From a virus (lineage: Duplodnaviria; Heunggongvirae; Uroviricota; Caudoviricetes): DNA of 22,417 bases. The position numbers and the translations under genes are program-made. The number at the start of each line of letters is the position of its first letter. Positions within the stretch are counted from its first letter, which is position 1. Positions 1 through 15,914 of this stretch are shown piece by piece. The notes beneath the pieces are model-generated. The model did no database searches and was not told the DNA's origin. It worked only from the letters and a program-made list of their open reading frames with translations. Location: IMG/VR virus record IMGVR_UViG_2609459831_000017; one strand, written 5' to 3'.

Positions 1-1284
1 TTACAGACTTCTGGAAGGTTGCGCAGCTCTTACAACACGCGGTTGATCTTCCGCAGCGTCTTCCAGCGCACTTAAATCACGGTCTTTCACCTCTGGCATT
101 TTCAGCGCAGAGATTAAACCAATCACTGAATATGCCATGATCATAATGGCGATCGGATACCAGGATTCCGTCATGGTGCAGAAAATACCCGCCAGGATAG
201 GACCAAAACCGGAAGCGATAAGACCACCAATTTCTTTAGAAATAGCCATCCGGGTAAAGCGGTTTTTACAGCCGAACATTTCTGCCATGGTAATGTTTTC
301 CAGAGCAAATAATCCCAGCACCGCACAGTTATGAATCACAATCAGTGCAACCATAATGGTGCTCGGGGCATAGCTTTTATCTACAATGATAGAAAGCATT
401 GGCCATGCCAGCACAATCGCGGAGGTATTCATAATAATATACGGGATCCGGCGACCAATTTTATCGGATAACCAACCAAGGAACGGAATGGTCATAAAGC
501 CGAGAATCGAACTGATCATCAATGCATCTGTTGGAATTGCTTTGTTAAACAATAACGTCTGCACTAAATAGCCTGCAAGGAAAGTCTGAATTAACTCGGA
601 GTTACCCGCCTGACCAAAACGCAGCCCTGTTGCCAGCCAGAAGGATTTGCTCTGGAACATGCTACCAGCAGGTGCAGGTTTTGCTGTCGGTTGGTTACTG
701 TCGTTAACCTTCTCAAAGACCGGGCTTTCTTTCAGATTCATACGCAACCAGATAGCAAAGACCATCACGACAACGCTCGCCAGGAACGGTATACGCCATC
801 CCCACGCCAGCAGTTCCTCTTTACTGAGAATGAAGAACATAAAGGCCCAGATTGCCGTTGCGCTCAAGGTTCCGCAGTTAGTTCCCATAGCCACAAATGA
901 GGAGATAATTCCGCGCTTACCTTTTGGCGCATATTCCGCCAGCATCGTACCGGCACCGGAAATTTCCGCACCTGCACCCAACCCCTGAATAATACGCAAC
1001 GTCACCAGCAAGATGGGTGCAAAAACACCAATCTGTGCATAGGTCGGTAACACACCAATTAAGGTGGTACAGATCCCCATCATGGTGATGGTAATAAAGA
1101 GCACTTTTTTACGCCCTATTCTGTCGCCCATTTTGCCGAAAATAAATGCTCCGACAATACGCGCCACATAACCTGCACCGTAGGTTCCCATTGCCAGAAT
1201 TAACGCCATTGCCGTTGATGATTCAGGAAAAAATATTTCATGAAACACTAACGCTGCGCCGAGCGAATATAACTGGAAATCCAT
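1..1284 (-). CDS. ydfJ: MFS transporter (metabolite:H+ symporter type), probably N-terminally truncated by the prophage insertion
   Basis: 427-aa ORF with ATG at 1282-1284 and TAA at 1-3. Multi-pass hydrophobic profile; the MFS loop 2-3 motif G-x-x-x-D-R-x-G-R-K (GKMGDRIGRKK) sits at residues ~50-60, leaving room for only one helix ahead of it. Confidence 0.85.
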   Translation of the reverse strand: MDFQLYSLGAALVFHEIFFPESSTAMALILAMGTYGAGYVARIVGAFIFGKMGDRIGRKKVLFITITMMGICTTLIGVLPTYAQIGVFAPILLVTLRIIQGLGAGAEISGAGTMLAEYAPKGKRGIISSFVAMGTNCGTLSATAIWAFMFFILSKEELLAWGWRIPFLASVVVMVFAIWLRMNLKESPVFEKVNDSNQPTAKPAPAGSMFQSKSFWLATGLRFGQAGNSELIQTFLAGYLVQTLLFNKAIPTDALMISSILGFMTIPFLGWLSDKIGRRIPYIIMNTSAIVLAWPMLSIIVDKSYAPSTIMVALIVIHNCAVLGLFALENITMAEMFGCKNRFTRMAISKEIGGLIASGFGPILAGIFCTMTESWYPIAIMIMAYSVIGLISALKMPEVKDRDLSALEDAAEDQPRVVRAAQPSRSL

Positions 1285-1886
1285 AATTCACAGGTGTTTT
1301 TTCCCATCCTGTGGTTTCCTTGGCGTTTTCTAGGTTTTTTCAGATAGTTGCATTTTTTAAAAAGCATCCTAAGTTCGATCTCAGTGTCTATCTGGGGCCT
1401 ATTTCTGTCCCATATATGCCCCAAAAAAACTCCCCAACAGATAAGTAGTTTTTTCATGGATTTATGCGTAAAATCAAGAACGGCTGGAAATCATTCAATA
1501 CTCACACTATCGAAAAATTTACCAGCCAACCGCAGCACGTTCTTGCATAAGGCGTGTCTGCGGTTTTTCAACTATTCAGATACATCACTCCCATCACATT
1601 CATTCCTCCGCATCAAAGGCATATAGGCTATATCACCTTGATATTTTTCTTTTTCAGATAAAAACTGTTATCTATGTATACTTTTAAACCCAATCCGTGT
1701 AGAGTCTCTGCATAAGATAGTTTGCAGTTGCCGCTTCAGCTTGCGCCATAACCGCCTGATTTTTGCTGCCACCTGTTAGCATTCCTGTATACCTGAAACG
1801 ACAATGTTTATCTACGAACTTTAAGAACACCCAAGATAAAAATTGTCAACTATATCATATATAACACATTACTAATTCGAGGCTAT

Positions 1887-2000
1887 ATGAACAGCATACT
1901 GATAATCACTTCTCTCCTTATCATATTCAGCATTTTTAGTCATGCCCTAATAAAATTAGGGATTGGCATATCCAATAACCCAGACAAAACCGATGTATAA
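1887..2000 (+). CDS. candidate small hydrophobic protein (37 aa, [37 protein letters not shown])
   Basis: ATG at 1887 preceded by GAGG at 1879-1882, TAA at 1998-2000. One predicted transmembrane helix plus a polar tail. Below the ORF-track cutoff; translated by hand. Confidence 0.3.
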
Positions 2001-2068
2001 GTCAACATATCCTGAATCAGACATACAATATCGCAATGAAAATCAATAATATTTTAAGGAATATCTTC

Positions 2069-2302
2069 ATGAAATCAAAAGACACCCTAAAGTGGTTCCC
2101 TGCGCAGCTTCCTGAAGTAAGAATTATCCTATGGGATGCTGTAGTGGAAGTAGCAAAACAGGGAAGACCTATCAATACCAGAACATTGCTTGATTACATT
2201 GAAGGAAACATAAAGAAAAAATCATGGCTGGATAACAAAGAATTATTACAAACAGCGATATCAGTTCTTAAAGACAACCAAAATTTAAATGGTAAAATGT
2301 AA
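2069..2302 (+). CDS. ydfK: YdfK/YnaE-family prophage protein (cold-shock-associated, function unknown)
   Basis: 77-aa product from ATG 2069 (MKSKDTLKWFPAQLPEV...) with AAGGA 9 nt upstream. Matches recalled K-12 YdfK/YnaE; the track ORF starts 11 codons earlier at 2036. Confidence 0.8.
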   Translation: MKSKDTLKWFPAQLPEVRIILWDAVVEVAKQGRPINTRTLLDYIEGNIKKKSWLDNKELLQTAISVLKDNQNLNGKM

Positions 2303-2618
2303 TATAATAAACTTACTTTTTTATCATTTTTCCACTTTAACAACATTTTGCTCCACTTTTCCACGACCAAACAACTTAAAATCTGGTTAAAATAACACGA
2401 AACACTATTCTTCTTCCTTGAGTCCGCCCGGAACTCGAAAAACAAACCGAGTTAAAGCCATTTTTCACAAAATCGATTTTGGGTCTCACCAAAATTACGG
2501 GGTTGCATACGCATTCGTTTATTTTCGAACGTGTACATACAAATATGCACAAAAATAATCAAAATTATTTTCTGCGATGCATTATGATATGAACACCAAT
2601 TTCGTATAGAGTCTCACT

Positions 2619-3209
2619 ATGTCTCGAATTTTTGCTTACTGTCGGATATCAACGCTGGATCAGACCACCGAAAATCAACGCCGGGAAATCGAAAGTGCAG
2701 GTTTTAAAATCAAACCTCAGCAAATAATCGAAGAACACATTAGCGGCTCAGCAGCAACCAGTGAGCGTCCTAGTTTTAACCGGTTGCTTGCTCGCCTGAA
2801 ATGTGGTGATCAATTGATTGTGACAAAACTGGATCGCCTTGGTTGTAATGCAATGGATATCAGGAAAACAGTGGAACAACTGACCGAAACAGGTATCAGA
2901 GTGCATTGCTTAGCATTGGGGGGCATTGACTTGACCAGTCCAACAGGAAAAATGATGATGCAAGTAATTTCAGCAGTTGCTGAATTTGAACGAGACCTTT
3001 TACTTGAACGCACTCATTCCGGGATAGTAAGAGCCCGCGGCGCAGGGAAACGTTTTGGTCGACCACCTGTGTTAAATGAAGAACAGAAACAGGTGGTATT
3101 CGAACGAATTAAGTCAGGTGTAAGTATAAGTGCCATTGCCCGGGAATTCAAAACCTCGCGGCAAACCATTTTAAGAGCCAAAGCAAAACTTCAGACACCT
3201 GACATATAA
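2619..3209 (+). CDS. pinQ: serine recombinase, DNA invertase (Pin/Gin/Hin family)
   Basis: 196 aa. N-terminal resolvase motif with catalytic Ser in YCRISTLDQ and a C-terminal helix-turn-helix; close match to recalled PinQ/PinE/Gin. Confidence 0.9.
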
Positions 3210-3306
3210 AAAATAATCTCGGTGTGAGATGCTTTACGTCTTCCAAGCCCCCTTCCTTGCCGTAAATGGAAAGATACATCTAATTAAAGAATTTATATGT
3301 TTTACC

Positions 3307-3882
3307 CTACGGCAGTGCTGGCCATTCAATATCCTGTGCAGTTGACGTATCAACACGGTTCAGCAATACCCGATACTTTTTCCATGCTTCCAGCAACGAG
3401 ATTTCTTCCTCCGTTGCAATTTCCAGATCTGCAGCATCCTGAAGCGGCGCAATATGCTCACTGGCTACCTGCATCAGGTTGTTTTTTGTTTCTTCCGCCT
3501 CCCGGATCCGGAACAGTTTTTCTGCTTCCGTATCCTTCACCCAGGCTGTGCCGTTCCACTTCTGAAACTCCCCTTCCGGCGATAACCAGGTAACATTTTT
3601 CGGTAACGGACCGAGTTCAGAAATAAATAACGCGTCGCCGGAAGCCACGTCATAAACCGTTTTACCCCGATGATCTTCAACGAGATGCCACGATGACTCA
3701 TCACTGTTGAAAACAGCCACGAAGCCAGCCGGAATATCTGGCGGTGCAATATCGGTACTGTTTGCTGGCAGACCTGTATGAGGCGGAATATATGCATCAC
3801 CTTCACCAATAAATTCATTAGTTCCGGCCAGCAGATTATAAATTGTTATGGTCCGTGGTTGTTCACTCATTCTGAATGCCAT
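3307..3882 (-). CDS. tfaQ: tail fiber assembly protein
   Basis: 191 aa; matches recalled TfaQ/lambda Tfa. Its start overlaps the stf stop (TAATG). Confidence 0.85.
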
Positions 3883-6800
3883 TATGCAAGCCTCACAATA
3901 TAGTTAAATGCGATGTTTTTGACGGTGTTTTCCGCGTTACCAGCAGCGTTAACGGTGATGGTGTGTCCATGTGAGCCAATCGCAACGGAGTGCGTATGAG
4001 CACCAATACCGACAGTATGTGCGTGTGCACCTGCGCTTGCAGCAGTACCCGATACAGAGTGCGTATGAGCGCCTGCAGAAGAAGTGTTAACACTGTATTT
4101 AGAATAATCAGGTGATCCACTTCCCGGAGCACCACTGGAACCACCTGAAACAAATGTCATCGAATGGGTATGTGCACCGGCTGAAGCAGCCGTACCGCTA
4201 ACACTATGGGTATGTGCACCAGTGTTATTCGTGGATTTAGTGCCGTAATCAAACGATGATGTGGTTTTCGTCCCCAAATCCGTACTGGATGCGCTGGCGC
4301 TGTGGGTGTGCGATTTAATGCCGTCCTGTTCCTGAGACAATACGGCACGACCACTGGCGGGCTTGCCCTTAATCGTCCAGCCACGCATATCAGGAATAAC
4401 GCCTGACGGATAAGCCACTGCAAGTTTCGGGTATGCAGATTTGTCAAAAGTCTGCCCCTGCATCAGGGCATAGCCAGACGGAACGGTATCTGATGGCCAC
4501 GGGATTGGTGCGCCGACTGGGTAGCTTTCTGGTGGAAGATTTTTCGAGGTATAAACTTCTGCCCAGTCATCCTCAAAACCATAACCGTCTCTTGAAGAAC
4601 GGTAGAACAGACCACCATTTCTGTAATGCGCCTTCATCTGCAAGGTCCGGCAACTTCCGACTCCGGTATAGAAGTTAACCAGAATATAGCTGTCGCCAGA
4701 GCGGGTGACATTGTAAGCACCTGATTCGGCATTCCAGGGAACGCCACCATCCGCATCGGCATATGTATCCGTTGCCCTTCTGGCAAAAGCAGCCACATGC
4801 GCGGCGGTTAAAGTAATATCTCTGGAACCATCAAACTCAACACCAGAAACCAGTCTTGGCGTTTGCAGCTTTGTTGCTGTTAATGCATTACCGTTCAGAC
4901 TTGCGGACAGTTTGGTTCCAATAACCAGTTCGCCGGTTGCGTTATAAATAGCAAACGGTCTTAATGTATTCCAGCCACCATAAACATCACCTTGATTGGT
5001 AAGCAGCAGGTAAGTTTTAGCGCCATCATTACGCCATAATGCACCATACTCCCCACCTATCATTCGAATCTGATTACCACCACGCGCTACAATTTCGTCT
5101 GTGGCAAAAAGTTTTTTGCACGACAAATTATCGTTAACGATTAACGAATGAGACTCATAAAAACCACGCCCACTCTTAAAATCAAGGATAACGTCCGCCG
5201 CGATACATTCAGTCGCTGGATTTGTTGCCCCAAACTTATAGGTCGTATCATTAACAACGAGATCAGCACCAGGTGCGGATATTGACAGGCCATCTTCGAT
5301 AAACGCAAAAACAGGGAAAGCAGCGCCATCAACATAGAACACAGAGCGCAAATCATCGCCCTTATTACTCATCATTATTGAGTGGATGGCTCGTTCATTG
5401 TTTTGATATTGCCAGAACATTCCATAAGCATAACGCCCCCTGTCAGTCCAGCCACCAGGCATAACAAATCCGTTAAACTCGCAGTTATTCATCGGATCGC
5501 CTGCGGTTCGCGTTGCCGTGGTGATAATGACCCTTGATGCCAGTTCGCTTACTGAGCCAGCAGAACGCATAACAACAACAGGGTAATATTTTCCAGATGT
5601 TGCACCTGCAGGAGCGTTAACCCGCACATAACGCATACCACGCTTATCAGCAAAGTCTGTTTTACTGACCGCGTTAATGTTGTTCAGGAAGCGTCCCTTA
5701 TCGGGTATATCAGTGCCGTTCTGGTCTTTCTGCAGACGTTTCTCTGCATTGTCATAGGCTGATTTTACTGCCTTTGGCGTTGCCGCCAGCGTTTCAGACG
5801 TACTGTTGGTCGCACTGCTGAGCTGTACTATCCCCTTTTTCGTCGTGCTCGCATCCTCAAGCGCCACGGCGGATGCAATATCCTCTGCCCGTTTTGCTGC
5901 TGTCTCGGCGCGCGTTGCCGCGGATTCCGCCGTACTTTTGCTCTGAGCTGCCGCCGTCGCACTGCCAGCTGCCTCTGTCGCCTTCGTGGATGCCGTCGTG
6001 GCGCTGCCCTTCGCTGCTGACGCCTGTCTGGTCGCCTCATCTTTTGAAGCAGACGCCGATGATGCCGATGACGCCGCCGAACTGGCTGACGATGCGGCAG
6101 CCGTTTTTGAGGATTCTGCGCTGGTTTCCGACGCTTTCGCGTTCGTTTCGGATGTCTTCGCTGCGGAAGCTGACCTCGCTGCTACCGTGGCCTGTTCAGT
6201 GGCTTCGCCAGCCTTCGTTGTGGCTGTTGAAGCGGATGATGCGGCGCTTTCTGCCGACTTTCCGGCAGCGGTGGCACTGGCTGAGGCCTGCCCGGCATTT
6301 GTTGACGCGGCGCTGGCAGATGAGGCAGCCGCTGTTTTTGAGTCTGCTGCTGCGGAGGCACTCTGTCCCGCTGCCGTCTCAGAAGACTTTGCGTTCGTCT
6401 CGGACGTTTTTGCCGCCTTCGCGGAAGTTCCTGCCGCTGTTGCCGAGGAGGCTGCACGACTGGCGCTCGAGGCTGCGCTCGTTTCTGATGATTTTGCCGC
6501 CTCTTTTGAAGCCGACGCATCCCTGGCTGAGGTGGCAGCTTCTGACGCTTTCGTGGTCGCGGTGGATGCAGAAGTGGCGGCTGATTGTTCTGACGCTGCC
6601 GCATTCGTTTCTGACGTTTTCGCCGCACCGGCACTGGTAGCCGCCGCGCTTTTTGAGGACTCTGCAGCGGCAGCACTTTTTGAGGCTTCAGTGGCCTTTG
6701 TTGATGCCGTTCCTGCGCTGGAAGACGCTGACTGAGCCGACGACGCGGCCTGTCCGGCTGACGTGCTGGCTGCACGTGCTGAATCTGCAGCATCAGTCGC

Positions 6801-7232
6801 ACGGGTTGCCGCCTCACTGGCAGATGTGCTGGCATCACTGGCTGACTTCTTTGCGGCTGCCGTGTTCTGTGCCACCACGGACGCGTTACGCGCCACCTCT
6901 TCCACCATCAGTTCAAAACGACGCAGTGCCTCCGGACGGGCATCATCCTCCGTCATGGCACCGAGAAAATCATTCAGCGTACCGGGTTGAGAATCTTCAT
7001 ACACGGTGATGGTCCCGGCATGTGACGGCGGGAATCCCTCCACCAACAGAATAACGCTGTACTGACCGTACTCAACGTCCATGCTGTAACGCCCGGCTTC
7101 ATCCGGATTTTCTGAGGCCAGCGTGTTCACCACCACAGTGGTACTGTTACGTTTTGCTTTCAGCTGGATTGTGCAGTTCTGTACCGGTTTTCCTGTGCCG
7201 TCTTTCAGTACACCTGAAATCTTTACTGCCAT
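3882..7232 (-). CDS. stfQ: side tail fiber protein, full length
   Basis: 1116 aa from ATG at 7230-7232 ([12 protein letters not shown]...) with GGGGTGA Shine-Dalgarno; the track ORF uses an upstream GTG at 7238. Conserved N-terminal baseplate-attachment region, long Ala/Ser/Thr-rich repeat block, and C-terminal His-rich GAHTHS repeats typical of lambda Stf/StfR. Confidence 0.85.
5885..6875 (-). repeat. imperfect tandem low-complexity coding repeats (Ala/Ser/Thr-rich) inside stf
   Basis: Reiterated motifs ([18 protein letters not shown]) in the Stf product. The GC-rich repeat DNA produces long artefactual ORFs in other frames on both strands of the track. Confidence 0.6.
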
Positions 7233-7234
7233 AT

Positions 7235-7381
7235 TCACCCCACAAAAAAGCCCGCCTGAACCGGCGGGCTGTCATAACACTGTGTTACCTGGCTAATGGC
7301 CATTGCGGCGGCACCGGGCACCGCCGTTTTGCTGATACGGCTGAGGTTTTCAACGGCCTGCTCAAGACCTTTTATGGCCAT
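7235..7381 (-). pseudogene. remnant of lambda tail gene Z (first ~29 codons only)
   Basis: Minus-strand ATG at 7379-7381, 12 nt downstream of the FII stop, translates MAIKGLEQAVENLSRISKTAVPGAAAMAI, matching the recalled lambda gpZ N-terminus, then diverges into unrelated sequence and stops at 7235-7237. Confidence 0.6.
7243..7270 (-). terminator. predicted intrinsic terminator immediately upstream of the stf ribosome-binding site
   Basis: 8-bp GC-rich stem (7249-7256 pairing 7263-7270) with a 6-nt loop, followed on the minus strand by TTTTTTG. Confidence 0.45.
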
Positions 7382-7392
7382 ACATCCCCCTT

Positions 7393-7746
7393 TCAGCGGC
7401 GACGGTTAACGGCAGGCGGTACGCCCCGTCCAAGCCAGAGATGACAACTTCCGCCATCATCCGGCGAAACCCGATCTACCCAGAAATTTTCCTCACCGAT
7501 GGTCAGCGTGTCTCCACGCCGCAGCTGCCGCACCTCATCAGTCCGGACAAACAGGGACGGGCTGGAGCCTTCAACGCGCACGCCCTGTCCGGCATAGCTG
7601 ATATTTTCAGGGTCATCAAAAACACCACGTATCACAGCACCGGACTGCTCACCGGATGTCATGGTGGCTGACGTTCCCATGTACCCGCGTATCGTTTCAT
7701 CGGCGCGGGCAATGGCAGCATCGAACAGGTTATCGAAATCAGCCAC
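7393..7746 (-). CDS. FII: head-tail joining protein FII
   Basis: 117 aa (MADFDNLFDAAIARADETIRGYMG...VNRRR), near-identical to recalled lambda gpFII. Confidence 0.9.
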   Translation of the reverse strand: MADFDNLFDAAIARADETIRGYMGTSATMTSGEQSGAVIRGVFDDPENISYAGQGVRVEGSSPSLFVRTDEVRQLRRGDTLTIGEENFWVDRVSPDDGGSCHLWLGRGVPPAVNRRR

Positions 7747-7757
7747 AGCGCCTCCCG

Positions 7758-8156
7758 TTATTGCATTCTGGCCAGGCCGCGCGCTGTCATTTCAGCTGAC
7801 ACACCGGCAGAGACACGAAACGCCGTTCCCGGCAGCACAAATGCCACAGGTTCATCCCGCGTGGCGTGAAGTGCATCAGTATGCAGCGTCACCAGTGCCA
7901 CGACCGTGACCAGTTCAGACGTATCCAGAATCACGGTATCCGGCTGCGCTGATCCCACCTCATTTTCATGTCCGGTCAGCACATTTTCCCGGCTGAGAGG
8001 GGTGTCCTGACCGGCAGTTTCATCCGTGTCATCAAGCTCCTCTTCCAGCTCTGCCACACGGAGCGCCAGTTCTTCTTTCGTCCCCGTCAGGCTGACATCA
8101 CGGTTCAGTTGTTCACCCAGCGAGCGGAGACGGGCAATCAGTTCATCTTTCGTCAT
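7758..8156 (-). CDS. FI: DNA packaging protein FI
   Basis: 132 aa from ATG at 8154-8156 (MTKDELIARLRSLGEQLN...), matching recalled lambda gpFI; the track ORF extends 13 codons upstream to a GTG. Confidence 0.85.
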   Translation of the reverse strand: MTKDELIARLRSLGEQLNRDVSLTGTKEELALRVAELEEELDDTDETAGQDTPLSRENVLTGHENEVGSAQPDTVILDTSELVTVVALVTLHTDALHATRDEPVAFVLPGTAFRVSAGVSAEMTARGLARMQ

Positions 8157-8197
8157 GGACTCCTCCACAGAGAGAAAATGGCCCCGAAGGGCCATGA

Positions 8198-8674
8198 TTA
8201 CGCCAGTTGAACGGCCACGAACTCATCAGGATCAGCCAGCAGCATCAGCGGTGCTGACTGAATCATGGTGAACTCTCGCGCCGGATCGCCGGATGTCTTC
8301 CAGTTTTTCGGATAACGGGGAGACGCATTAATACCCTCACTCAATGCATCCGCATCCTGAATACAGCCATAGGTGCGCAGACCGCGTGCATGAGTGTTAC
8401 CCAGCACCATCGTGTTGTCCGGCAGGAAGTTCTTTTTGACGCCGTTTTCCACGTACTGTCCGGAATACACGACGATGGCCACATCGCCATACATCCCCTT
8501 ATAGGACACCGCTTTACCCAGGTCTTTCACCGCTGTCTCCAGCTCGGAATGAGAGCCACGACGGGTATCCAGCTTCTCCCTGACGGCTTTGAAGGAACGG
8601 AACAGCGCCCAGCCTTTCGGATCGAACACGATGATATTCACCACACCGCTGGCGTTCAGCGCGTAGGCTTCGAT
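8198..8674 (-). pseudogene. C-terminal fragment of major capsid protein E (about 158 codons), no native start
   Basis: Translation IEAYALNASGVVNIIVFDPKGWALFRSF...VAVQLA matches the C-terminal portion of recalled lambda gpE. The frame continues upstream past 8674 into unrelated codons, offset by one from the A' frame. Confidence 0.8.
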
Positions 8675-9906
8675 ACGCGCATTTCGTAGCGGTCCAGCTG
8701 GGAGTCGATACCGGCGGTCAGGTAAGCCACACGGTCAGGAACGGGCGCTGAATAATGCTCTTTCCGCTCTGCCATCACTTCAGCATCCGGACGTTCACCG
8801 ATTTTCGCTTCCCACGTCTCACCGAGCGTGGTGTTCACGAAGGTTTTACGTTTTCCCGTATCCCCTTTCGTCTTCATCCAGTCTTTGACAATCTGCACCC
8901 AGGTGGTGAACGGACTGTACGCCGTCCAGATGTGAAAGGTCACACTGTCAGGCGGTTCAATCTCTTCACCGGATGACGAAAACCAGAGAATGCCATCACG
9001 GGTCCAGATCCCGGTCTTTTCGCAGATATAACGGGCATCAGTAAAGTCCAGCTCCTGCTGACGGATGACGCAGGCGTTATGCTCACAGAGATAAAACACG
9101 CTGGAGGGGTCATCCGGCATCCATTTGAGGCCAAACGGCGTCTCTTTGTCGCCAAATTTAAGGTACTGCTCCTTCCCGCAGTGCGGGCAGGCAACATGAA
9201 AACGCATAAAATGCGGGGATTCACTGGCTGCACGCTCAATCTGGCAGGTGCCTCTCACTTTGGGCGTGGAGCCACGGATGGACTTTGGCCAGACCGAGCC
9301 TTCAATACGTTTGTCGCCAAGGAACGTCGGAGAGCCTTCCTGTTCAATATCCTCATCAAAGGCAGCAAGTTCATCATAACCCGCCACATCCACCGACTTT
9401 TCACGGTAGTTTTTTGCCGCTTTACCGCCCAGGCACCAGAAGCCACGACCATTGGTGAAACGCTTCATAGTGAGCGTGTTATCCCGGTGCTTTTTGCCAT
9501 ACCACGGAGCCAGCGCCAGCAGCGACGGAATATCGCGGATGGTCGGCTCAACGTGGGTTTTCATAAAGTTCTCGGCATCACCATCCGTCGGCAACCAGAT
9601 AAGTGTGTTGCGCTGCTTATGCTCTATAAAGTAGGCATAAACACCCAGCAGCATTTTGGAATAACCGACACGGGCAGACTTCACCACATTCACCTCACGG
9701 ATGTAGTCGCTGCCCATCGCATTCATGATGGCCCGCTGAAAGGGCAGTGTTTCCCAGCGCCCTTCCTGGTATGCGGATTCTTTCGGGAGATAGTAATTAG
9801 CATCCGCCCATTCAACGGCGGTCTGTGGCTCCGGCCTGAACAGTGAGCGAAGCCCGGCGCGGACAAAATGCCGCAGCCTGTTAACCTGACTGTTCGATAT
9901 ATTCAC
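8656..9906 (-). pseudogene. terminase large subunit A, truncated after ~409 codons
   Basis: MNISNSQVNRLRHFVRAGL...DRYEMRV matches the N-terminal two-thirds of recalled lambda gpA (641 aa), then 5 unrelated codons (SKPTR) and TGA at 8656-8658. The C-terminal region is absent. Confidence 0.85.
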
Positions 9907-12308: not shown

Positions 12309-12514
12309 TTCATTTTCACTTTTTTAAATCCAACGACAGACGGCTGGCATTTAAGTATTGTGAAATATTATCAAATGTAATCATCATTGATTTACAAAAG
12401 ATACATTTTGCCCCGAAAGGATTCATGTCAGAAACATCAAAAGATGATGTTCTATACTGGGAACCATGACAACACGGGCATCTAAAGTGAATATGGTTTG
12501 TAATATTGTCTACC

Positions 12515-12727
12515 TCAAAGCGCCACTACATGAACAGCGGCAGGACCTTTAGGTCCGTTCTCAATACCAAATTCAACTTCCTGATTCTCAGTTAATGTTT
12601 TGAAATCGTTGCTCTGAATTGCTGAGAAATGGACAAACACATCTTTGCTGCCATCTTTCGGCGTGATGAAACCAAAACCTTTTTCAGGGTTAAACCATTT
12701 CACTAAACCAGTCATTTTGTTAGACAT
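12515..12727 (-). CDS. cspI: cold-shock protein, CspA family
   Basis: 70 aa ([38 protein letters not shown]...) with RNP1/RNP2 motifs (KGFGFI, VFVHF). Confidence 0.9.
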
Positions 12728-13089
12728 AATTATTACCTTTTGAAGAAATTAGCCCTTGGGCAGAATGGTCCGAAAAAAAATATCAGAGAGAAAAACCAAC
12801 AAGGAAATCTCAAGAGGTACAAATAATAAAATTATAACAATGACTGCTTCAGATAAATTTGTAACAAACCAGAACACCATTAACGCATGATTAACCACCC
12901 ATAGCAAGGATTACTTTTGTAAAGAAAAACACAGCAATGAAAGAATAGCTTTATTTATTAATAAAACGTGTCATTCTGATTAAGACCTTTTATCTTACCC
13001 TTAAGATTTCAGGAATTTTGGCTCATGGAAGAGTCCTTTTTATTTAAATTTTACATTCCGCGATGTAAATGTTCCGATTTAATATTACC

Positions 13090-15117: not shown

Positions 15118-15398
15118 GAGATTGTGGTGCTTTTTGTGGGAGTCATCCACTTACGCACTTTGTTTTGCCATGCCAGCAGTTAGCTTCTGCTGTAAAACTA
15201 TTCATGCAGCAAACCTGCACTTCACCACAATGGTTAGCATACTTTTCCTGATTAAGATTTTGCCAAATATGCTAGCCATTGTTTCATGTATTGGACCTCC
15301 TTACTTTTTATTAAAGAGATCCAATATTCACTACTCTGTCCGTATCTCTACTCAGGCATCAGCCTTCTTCGTTATCGTATACAGACGAGCGATGAATT

Positions 15399-15614
15399 TT
15401 AATCAGTAATGATGACATTTGCTGCTGCAGGACCTTTAGCACCACTCTCTATAGAGAAGGTAACCTTTTGACCTTCAAATAAGGTTCGATAATTATCATT
15501 CTGAATCGCAGAAAAATGCACAAACACATCTTTACTACCATCAACAGGAGAAATAAAGCCGAAACCTTTATCAGCGTTAAACCATTTTACTAAACCAGTC
15601 ATTTTATTTGACAT
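15399..15614 (-). CDS. cspB: cold-shock protein, CspA family
   Basis: 71 aa ([53 protein letters not shown]...). Confidence 0.9.
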
Positions 15615-15914
15615 TCTACATTCCTTAACTTGAGCCTTTCGGCATAAATGGTTTGCATAACAGAAACGACTTCGTACTTAATTGGAGAGACTCAAAGAAG
15701 GAATAAGTGAATAACACCTGAAATGAGAACTGCTTTAGTAAACTACTTCGTATATCGTCTGTTCTTCAAACCGACGCAATCATTAACGCATAGTTGAACA
15801 TATGAAGCAATGTTTATTTTAGACATCCAGCCATCTTCAACCCCATCAAAAAACTATAGCTTTCTTCAGGAACGTGTGTATAGTGCGCCAAGTTATCAGT
15901 ATTAAGGAATTTTT

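Follow-up and report, generated by a model that had tools for sequence, protein, structure and literature searches.

Does a gene that is annotated as a DNA invertase have anything nearby to invert? The question is raised by the 22,417-nt stretch of viral DNA recorded as IMGVR_UViG_2609459831_000017 (the window), in which pinQ, the gene of a small serine recombinase, lies beside tail-fibre genes in the interval 2303-3306, which consists of pinQ and both of its intergenic flanks. The window differs by 3 mismatches from positions 1787319-1809735 of E. coli 1303 (NZ_CP009166.1) and corresponds to the ydfJ-proximal part of the Qin cryptic lambdoid prophage. Roughly one in two complete E. coli genomes carries pinQ and pinR, as do live lambdoid phages, and both genes are routinely annotated as DNA invertases. 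A preliminary description of this DNA had regarded the gene as a Mu/P1/e14-type invertase that might be orphaned or might act on sites elsewhere. That it is an orphan, with no invertible segment in cis, holds, and is also the published view (Kirigo et al., Nucleic Acids Research 2025, PMC12529663). The reason for this state is likely to lie in its ancestry: pinQ would be a fossil or exapted tnpR of the Tn3 family, placed in a lambdoid accessory module together with a vestigial res, and not a fibre invertase of the Mu/P1/e14 type.

For the crossover sites of a fibre switch, a half-site matrix was built from gix of phage Mu (TTATCCAAAACCTCGGTTTACAGGAA) and from pixL and pixR of the K-12 e14 prophage, and the whole window was scanned for 12-2-12 dyads. 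No 26-bp site of the gix/pix type, and hence no inverted pair, was found across the window: the best dyad scores 12.0, compared to 28-32 for genuine sites, and the dyad maxima of 100 shuffles have a median of 10.6 and a 95th percentile of 14.3. The full pix consensus has no match in the window at 3 or fewer mismatches. In agreement with the preliminary description, an inverted-repeat search of 1300-8000 returned no convincing pair, the best being 27 nt at 74% complementarity; the others are of low identity and chance-like, several of them in the Ala/Ser-rich repeats of the side tail-fibre gene stf, which has neither an internal gix/pix-type site nor an inverted-repeat partner. The weak 8-mer match to the gix core, AAACCGAG, is present where it had been noted (Table 1). 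Given that about 0.7 exact 8-mers are expected per 22.4 kb on both strands, this match is at chance level. A pix-like half-site, AACTCGAAAAAC, adjoins it at 2432-2443 without a partner half.

The surrounding DNA gives the same picture. The window carries one tfa-stf set, as had been stated, and only ynfT and ydfK lie between pinQ and the prophage end. Furthermore, no sign of orientation polymorphism was seen in a set of 5,426 complete E. coli genomes. With presence defined as at least 80% of the sequence, 2303-3306 is found in 2,675 of these genomes and 1285-3900 is found collinearly in 2,543.

The protein itself does not belong with the fibre invertases. In all-against-all comparisons PinQ is 35% identical to Gin and 38% identical to PinE, whereas Gin and PinE share 77%; PinQ therefore falls outside the Hin/Gin/Cin/Pin subfamily. 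The clade to which it belongs is 59-99% identical internally, has members in E. coli plasmids, Shewanella, Erwinia, Photorhabdus, Burkholderiales and alpha-proteobacteria, and shows 32-39% identity to Gin/PinE and 32-37% to gamma-delta resolvase (comparison with the PDB gives the same ranking). When a phage collection was searched by tblastn, matches of 98.5-99.5% were obtained to the 'invertases' of live lambdoid phages (2H10, mEp460, HannyBb, Tritos, Kati and others), with 99.5% identity to the protein of 2H10, mEp460, HannyBb and Tritos. The next match is an Erwinia phage at 61%, and Gin-type invertases follow at 37-38%. NCBIfam leaves PinQ without a classification, with sub-threshold matches only (Mpi, XisF, Ccr).

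Relatives of PinQ are present in 1,858 plasmid records, and their neighbourhoods point to a transposon. The homologue on pRM10386-2 (L009, 84% identity) is divergent from a 914-aa open reading frame (ORF) with DUF4158 and DDE_Tnp_Tn3 domains, and that on a pAA-ST131 plasmid (L040, 79%) is divergent from an annotated Tn3-family transposase. Thus, their layout is the tnpA-res-tnpR order of Tn3-family transposons. Further plasmid copies adjoin a ParE/RelE toxin-antitoxin pair or chromate/arsenic cargo. In the window, a Tn3-type transposase ORF is absent from both the ORF list and the annotation, and transposon ends are absent as well. Two side observations on the clade may be added here. In Erwinia oleae (L023, 1299-2650), two divergent paralogues of the PinQ clade stand back to back, with dyad sites upstream of each. 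Copies of pinQ that are 98-99% identical to that of E. coli occur in metagenome-assembled genomes of Alistipes, Draconibacterium and Caldithrix (L011, L014, L015), each time on a short contig. Contamination with E. coli DNA or mis-binning is the most likely cause, and the trematode 'PinQ' of Kirigo et al. is probably a similar artefact.

The DNA upstream of these relatives carries the substrate that is expected of a resolvase. In six diverse homologues, dyad sites stand at a fixed distance from the start codon and share the half-site consensus TGTCCGAAACC: site I spans 26 bp at -115 (for example TGTCCGAAACCG AG CGATTTCGGACA), site II spans 32 bp in an 11-10-11 arrangement at -75, and site III lies between the -10 region and the start codon. 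Three homologues outside the matrix training (L039, L040 and L041) show the same five strong half-sites, at -114/-99, at -74/-53 and at -35 or -23. A gene preceded directly by three subsites that differ in spacing has the res architecture of a resolvase. From about the right half of site I onward, the DNA preceding pinQ can be aligned with this array. Blastn homology with the Tn-type plasmid copies is confined to 2539-3254 (L009) and 2539-3248 (L008 and L041). The Erwinia phage homologue at 61% identity (phage LS-2018a) has the same upstream dyad architecture with a diverged half-site, TGTACTAAA, and no invertible segment is evident there.

The array upstream of pinQ is a remnant and not a complete res. 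On a position weight matrix (PWM) of the family half-site, for which the training range is 9.3-17.1, the half-sites of sites I and II score only 4.3-6.6, the best of site II being its left half, TGCACAAAAAT (2546-2556), at 4.6. The right half of site III, TATACGAAATT, scores 13.4 and is the top match in the whole 22.4-kb window, in which family half-sites as a class are not enriched (27 found versus 25 expected). An Rfam scan of 1285-3400 gave no match in the intergenic regions, and a scan with consensus promoters and terminators gave no clear promoter or terminator for pinQ.

The recombinase had also been described as catalytically intact. This stands insofar as the ORF is of full length, has Resolvase and HTH_7 matches, and retains Tyr7, Arg9, Ser11 and Arg73. 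However, codon 76 encodes Cys and not the catalytic Arg, so that the motif LDRLGR of Gin, PinE and gamma-delta resolvase reads LDRLGC in PinQ. Arg occupies this position in 112 of the 120 nearest 90%-cluster representatives. The position of Tn3 D36 is Glu throughout the PinQ clade; the essential set (Tn3 Y6, R8, S10, D36, R68 and R71) is thus incomplete in PinQ, with Glu at the D36 position and Cys76 at that of R71. In Tn3 resolvase, R71 belongs to a set of six residues; their mutation abolishes recombination and reduces cleavage about 1000-fold, and both R71A and R71K give no recombination (PMC2794168). By analogy with this enzyme, the strand-exchange activity of PinQ is probably strongly reduced.

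The substitution is shared by the prophage copies. Cys76 is found in every phage or prophage copy examined (the window, 2H10, HannyBb, Kati, E. ruysiae, the Rac and Qin copies of a K-12-like genome, and Shigella), with a single exception, and it is also found in a second prophage lineage (L037) that is only 84% identical and shows the same decay of the sites. The exception is a mosaic pin in E. coli GCA_910593615 (L036, 3800-4600), which lies in the same dinI-ynaE-pin-tfa prophage context. There, upstream DNA of the 2H10 type is followed by a Tn-type right half of site II and site III, then by a gene body with Arg76, and finally by a PinQ-type C-terminus, an order that suggests gene conversion between prophage and transposon copies. 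Given that the second lineage has decayed sites together with Cys76, and that the mosaic has regained Tn-type sites together with Arg76, the loss of the crossover site and the loss of the arginine accompany each other.

The module as a whole is well preserved. The ynfT-ydfK-pin genes and both intergenic regions are about 99% conserved in the live phages 2H10, HannyBb and Kati, and in HannyBb the same module is followed by different tail-fibre genes. When the two prophage lineages with Cys76 are compared, the ratio of nonsynonymous to synonymous substitution rates (dN/dS) is 0.34, as against 0.13-0.14 in comparisons to the Tn-type copies. This suggests that constraint is relaxed yet ongoing, and PinQ probably still does something. 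It should also be noted that the pin copies of Shigella flexneri (L029) and of E. coli ECGI0523 (L030), at 3001-3590, are pseudogenes with multiple in-frame stops; pin therefore does decay in some genomes.

Taken together, these results give the following picture. A fragment reaching from about the right half of site I through tnpR (~2520-3254) sits in the 'b-region' module ynfT-ydfK-pin of lambdoid phages of the Rac, Qin and 2H10 type; its capture would have taken place at or near the centre of site I. The transposase partner is missing, the crossover subsite I and site II are degenerate, and Cys stands in place of one essential Arg. Hence pinQ has no cognate site pair in cis, and its locus holds nothing to invert or to resolve. 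PinQ probably still binds the retained site III and promoter region and so represses its own transcription. Rearrangement that it promotes elsewhere, such as inversion of the e14 P segment, may be a weak activity on heterologous sites or may come about indirectly, by way of PinE. A wider proposal can be offered tentatively: PinQ and PinR may be exapted, catalytically compromised Tn3-family resolvases that lambdoid phages have kept as DNA-binding proteins, which would regulate their own genes or others, or would modulate PinE without catalysis. The e14 phenotype would then be indirect, and the DNA that matches these proteins best would be the res sites of related Tn3-family transposons on plasmids, not fibre-switch sites. 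A preprint (10.1101/2022.03.29.486199) attributes a transcription-repressing role to PinR.

Several points weigh against a stranded resolvase as the explanation. Kirigo et al., who describe PinQ as having no adjacent segment, report that production of PinQ raises inversion of the 1797-bp P segment of e14 from about 30% to 88% as judged by quantitative PCR, and that deletion of pinQ lowers it (PMC12529663). At face value, PinQ is therefore catalytically active. The ORF is intact in thousands of genomes with a dN/dS below 1, which argues for some retained function; PinQ probably keeps some role under this relaxed but continuing constraint. Both prophage lineages share four derived substitutions in the helix-turn-helix (HTH) region (R178K, T180S, V187A and R188K), so the DNA specificity may have shifted, and the seemingly degenerate sites may be real ones for the changed protein. 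What Cys does at the R71 position of PinQ itself is extrapolated from Tn3 resolvase. Finally, one MAFFT alignment places the left half of site I opposite the plasmid left half with a 20-nt gap and another disagrees, the half being either displaced by about 20 nt or replaced; it may have been lost by insertion or by recombination at the site centre, depending on the alignment.

The observations of Kirigo et al. would follow directly if PinQ were a fully active invertase working in trans, which flips the e14 P segment, or similar segments flanked by pix, gix or cix in other prophages, and so makes StfE2. StfE2, the product of the inverted P segment, blocks adsorption of T2; cells that survive T2 have the segment in the inverted state, and the effect of PinQ is gone in strains deleted for stfP, stfE or e14 (PMC12529663). 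Moreover, action of invertases in trans is known, Fin on hix and PinE on the G segment being cited by the same authors. Yet deletion of pinE alone locks the P segment while pinQ and pinR are intact (PMC12529663), and the in vivo data are indirect and come from a pinE+ background: the strain list of that study includes neither a strain with PinQ and without PinE nor a catalytically dead PinQ, and active-site residues, resolvases and Tn3 are not discussed in it. Apart from Cys76, the sites also fit poorly, since on the half-site model of the PinQ family those of pix reach no more than 6.2, 2.2 and -0.7 and are spaced 2 bp closer than those of the family site I. Furthermore, K-12-type DNA of the e14 P segment and pinE (at least 99% identity) occurs in about 280 records and is carried collinearly by 170 genomes, compared to 2,675 of 5,426 genomes for the pinQ locus. 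Being far rarer than pinQ, e14 is therefore not the target that maintains the gene in most strains or in live phages. The suggestion of the preliminary description that PinQ may act on sites elsewhere thus has an experimental claim behind it, though one to which the missing dead control and the locked segment of the pinE deletion apply, and we consider a fully active trans-acting enzyme unlikely. In the same study, no inversions within Qin or Rac were found in database genomes (PMC12529663).

More doubtful still is a resolvase of shifted specificity that uses a single upstream site, either the remnant array or the dyad TTCACAAAATC|GATTTTGGGTC at 2464-2485, and that resolves phage or prophage dimers or recombines two copies such as those of Rac and Qin. 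The shared derived changes in the HTH region would suit such an enzyme, as would several CNNAAAAT-like half-sites in 2430-2580 and a perfect 14-bp palindrome, CAAAATCGATTTTG, at 2468-2481, which reads AAAAATCGATTTTT in 2H10 and in the mosaic L036, both arms having changed with the palindrome kept; one site per genome copy is all that a resolvase needs. On the other hand, the region is AT-rich, with A-tract motifs common, and Cys76 poses the same difficulty here. Neither our genome comparisons nor the BLAST survey of Kirigo et al. saw a rearrangement at the candidate sites. As a crossover core the palindrome was set aside and is kept only under this doubtful alternative, about 1.5 perfect 14-bp palindromes being expected by chance per window (2 are seen) and no second copy of this one being found in the window. 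The original proposal, a decayed Mu/P1/e14-type switch from which the alternative cassette of stf C-terminus and tfa has been deleted along with its sites, with ydfK in its place, is hardly credible. What speaks for it is that a recombinase gene named 'pin' adjoins tfa-stf and that the pix-like half-site AACTCGAAAAAC is present. Identity to Gin and PinE is only 35-38%, however, and no gix/pix-type dyad exists in the window. The layout is also the wrong way around: ydfK lies on the far side of pinQ from the fibre genes, and pinQ is convergent with tfaQ. The invertase genes of Mu and e14 instead abut the invertible segment, with their 5' ends facing it. The identical arrangement persists in live phages next to unrelated fibre genes, the nearest relatives outside prophages are Tn3-family resolvases with an upstream res, and the upstream DNA is homologous to that transposon array and not to a fibre gene. 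A stranded Tn3-family tnpR remains the reading that we prefer, and the features on which it draws are collected in Table 1.

Table 1. Genes, codons and site remnants at and around pinQ, in window coordinates
Feature	Position	Strand	Basis or remark
Truncated ydfJ	1-1284	-	First gene in window order
ynfT, small ORF	1887-2000	+	RefSeq annotation of E. coli 1303; opens the conserved ynfT-ydfK-pin module; same order in HannyBb and Kati
ydfK (cold-shock protein YdfK/YnaE family)	2069-2302	+	Annotation; upstream of pin
AAACCGAG, 8-mer match to gix core	2444-2451	+	Chance level
TCACCAAAATT, possible displaced left half of site I	2486-2496	+	PWM 4.3; separated from the right half by 24 nt, not 4
CGTTCGAAAAT, remnant of right half of site I	2521-2531	-	PWM 6.6; aligned with GGTTTCGGACA of plasmid and other homologues; Tn-type res similarity begins about here
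Degenerate res site II	2544-2579		12-10-12 geometry kept, half-sites decayed; collinear with homologue site II at -75
TATGAT, putative -10 element	2583-2588	+	Between sites II and III; aligns with homologue TATAAT; promoter scan gave no full promoter
Remnant of res site III	2589-2609		Of the family half-sites, only the right half TATACGAAATT (2598-2608, -) is well preserved
pinQ, 196-aa small serine recombinase	2619-3209	+	Pfam Resolvase 1.1e-35, HTH_7 3.7e-11
Ser11 codon TCA, catalytic nucleophile	2649-2651	+	Present, as seen when aligned with Gin and gamma-delta resolvase
Cys76 codon TGT, at the Tn3/gamma-delta R71 position	2844-2846	+	One transition from CGT
End of homology with Tn3-family tnpR copies	3210-3254		About 45 bp beyond the stop codon
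tfaQ, tail-fibre assembly gene	3307-3882	-	Convergent with pinQ; belongs to no switch; Pfam Caudo_TAP 6.9e-43; annotation
stf, side tail-fibre gene, 1118 aa	3882-7238	-	Single copy; Pfam phage_tail_N, Gp34_trimer, Collar

Outside the pin module, the window continues beyond stf with head and terminase remnants, a lysis cassette, cold-shock genes, relBE-hokD and a terminal IS3. From stf to nohA (7286-9906), the head and tail genes are fragments only (a tail protein, a truncated major capsid protein and a truncated gpA terminase). The Qin copy in the window is defective, yet its stf is of full length, unlike that of K-12. The centre of stf (5850-6840, minus strand) is long, rich in Ala, Ser and Thr and internally repetitive; it is the source of several of the low-identity repeat pairs and of long spurious ORFs on the opposite strand. 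Within the 3' part of the tfaQ coding region there is a full-length match to the Rfam family IS009 (RF02111) at 3341-3539 on the minus strand, with 220.9 bits against a gathering score of 117. Two cspA-type thermoregulator 5' untranslated regions (RF01766), at 15383-15775 and 12488-12873 on the minus strand, correspond to cspB and cspI of the Qin cold-shock cluster. The ydfK gene adjoining pinQ is likewise annotated as a cold-shock gene, and its homologue in L036 has a Pfam YnaE match.

The pinQ gene, its orphan state and a proposed target in trans are already published. Transposon-resolvase ancestry, a vestigial res and the substituted catalytic Arg of PinQ were not found in the searchable literature. 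These three features would matter chiefly as a check on the published mechanism, in which pinQ and pinR are put forward as the first anti-phage system to be activated by a recombinase. If PinQ is indeed a stranded resolvase that lacks a key Arg and a cognate site, the 'invertase' label is misleading and that mechanism needs direct controls. The absence of an invertible segment at pinQ is explained and unremarkable.

How, then, does pinQ compare with the systems that are already known? PinR of Rac and the 'invertase' of 2H10, mEp460, Tritos and HannyBb represent essentially the same gene and module, with 98-99.5% identity, Cys76 and the same upstream DNA; they differ from pinQ only in the prophage and the insertion site. 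With Hin, Gin, Cin and PinE, PinQ shares the small serine recombinase fold, a C-terminal HTH and adjoining tail-fibre genes; Gin is its top-scoring solved structure (1.9e-28), and PinQ is reported to affect the substrate of PinE. However, the members of that group are roughly 60-77% identical to one another and PinQ reaches only 35-38%. Their recognition helix reads STLYK or STLYR and that of PinQ RQTILR, and pinQ has no 26-bp inverted sites, no invertible segment and the opposite orientation relative to the fibre genes. A third comparison is with the TnpR proteins of the Tn3 family, of which Tn3 and gamma-delta are the prototypes. PinQ differs from these in having neither transposase nor transposon ends, in its degenerate sites I and II, in Cys76 and in its setting within a lambdoid accessory module, and it is only 32-37% identical to gamma-delta resolvase itself. 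Nevertheless, it is 79-84% identical to the plasmid copies and has the same HTH recognition helix, (S/T)RQTILR, and their promoter and res array of three subsites have a collinear counterpart in the DNA upstream of pinQ.

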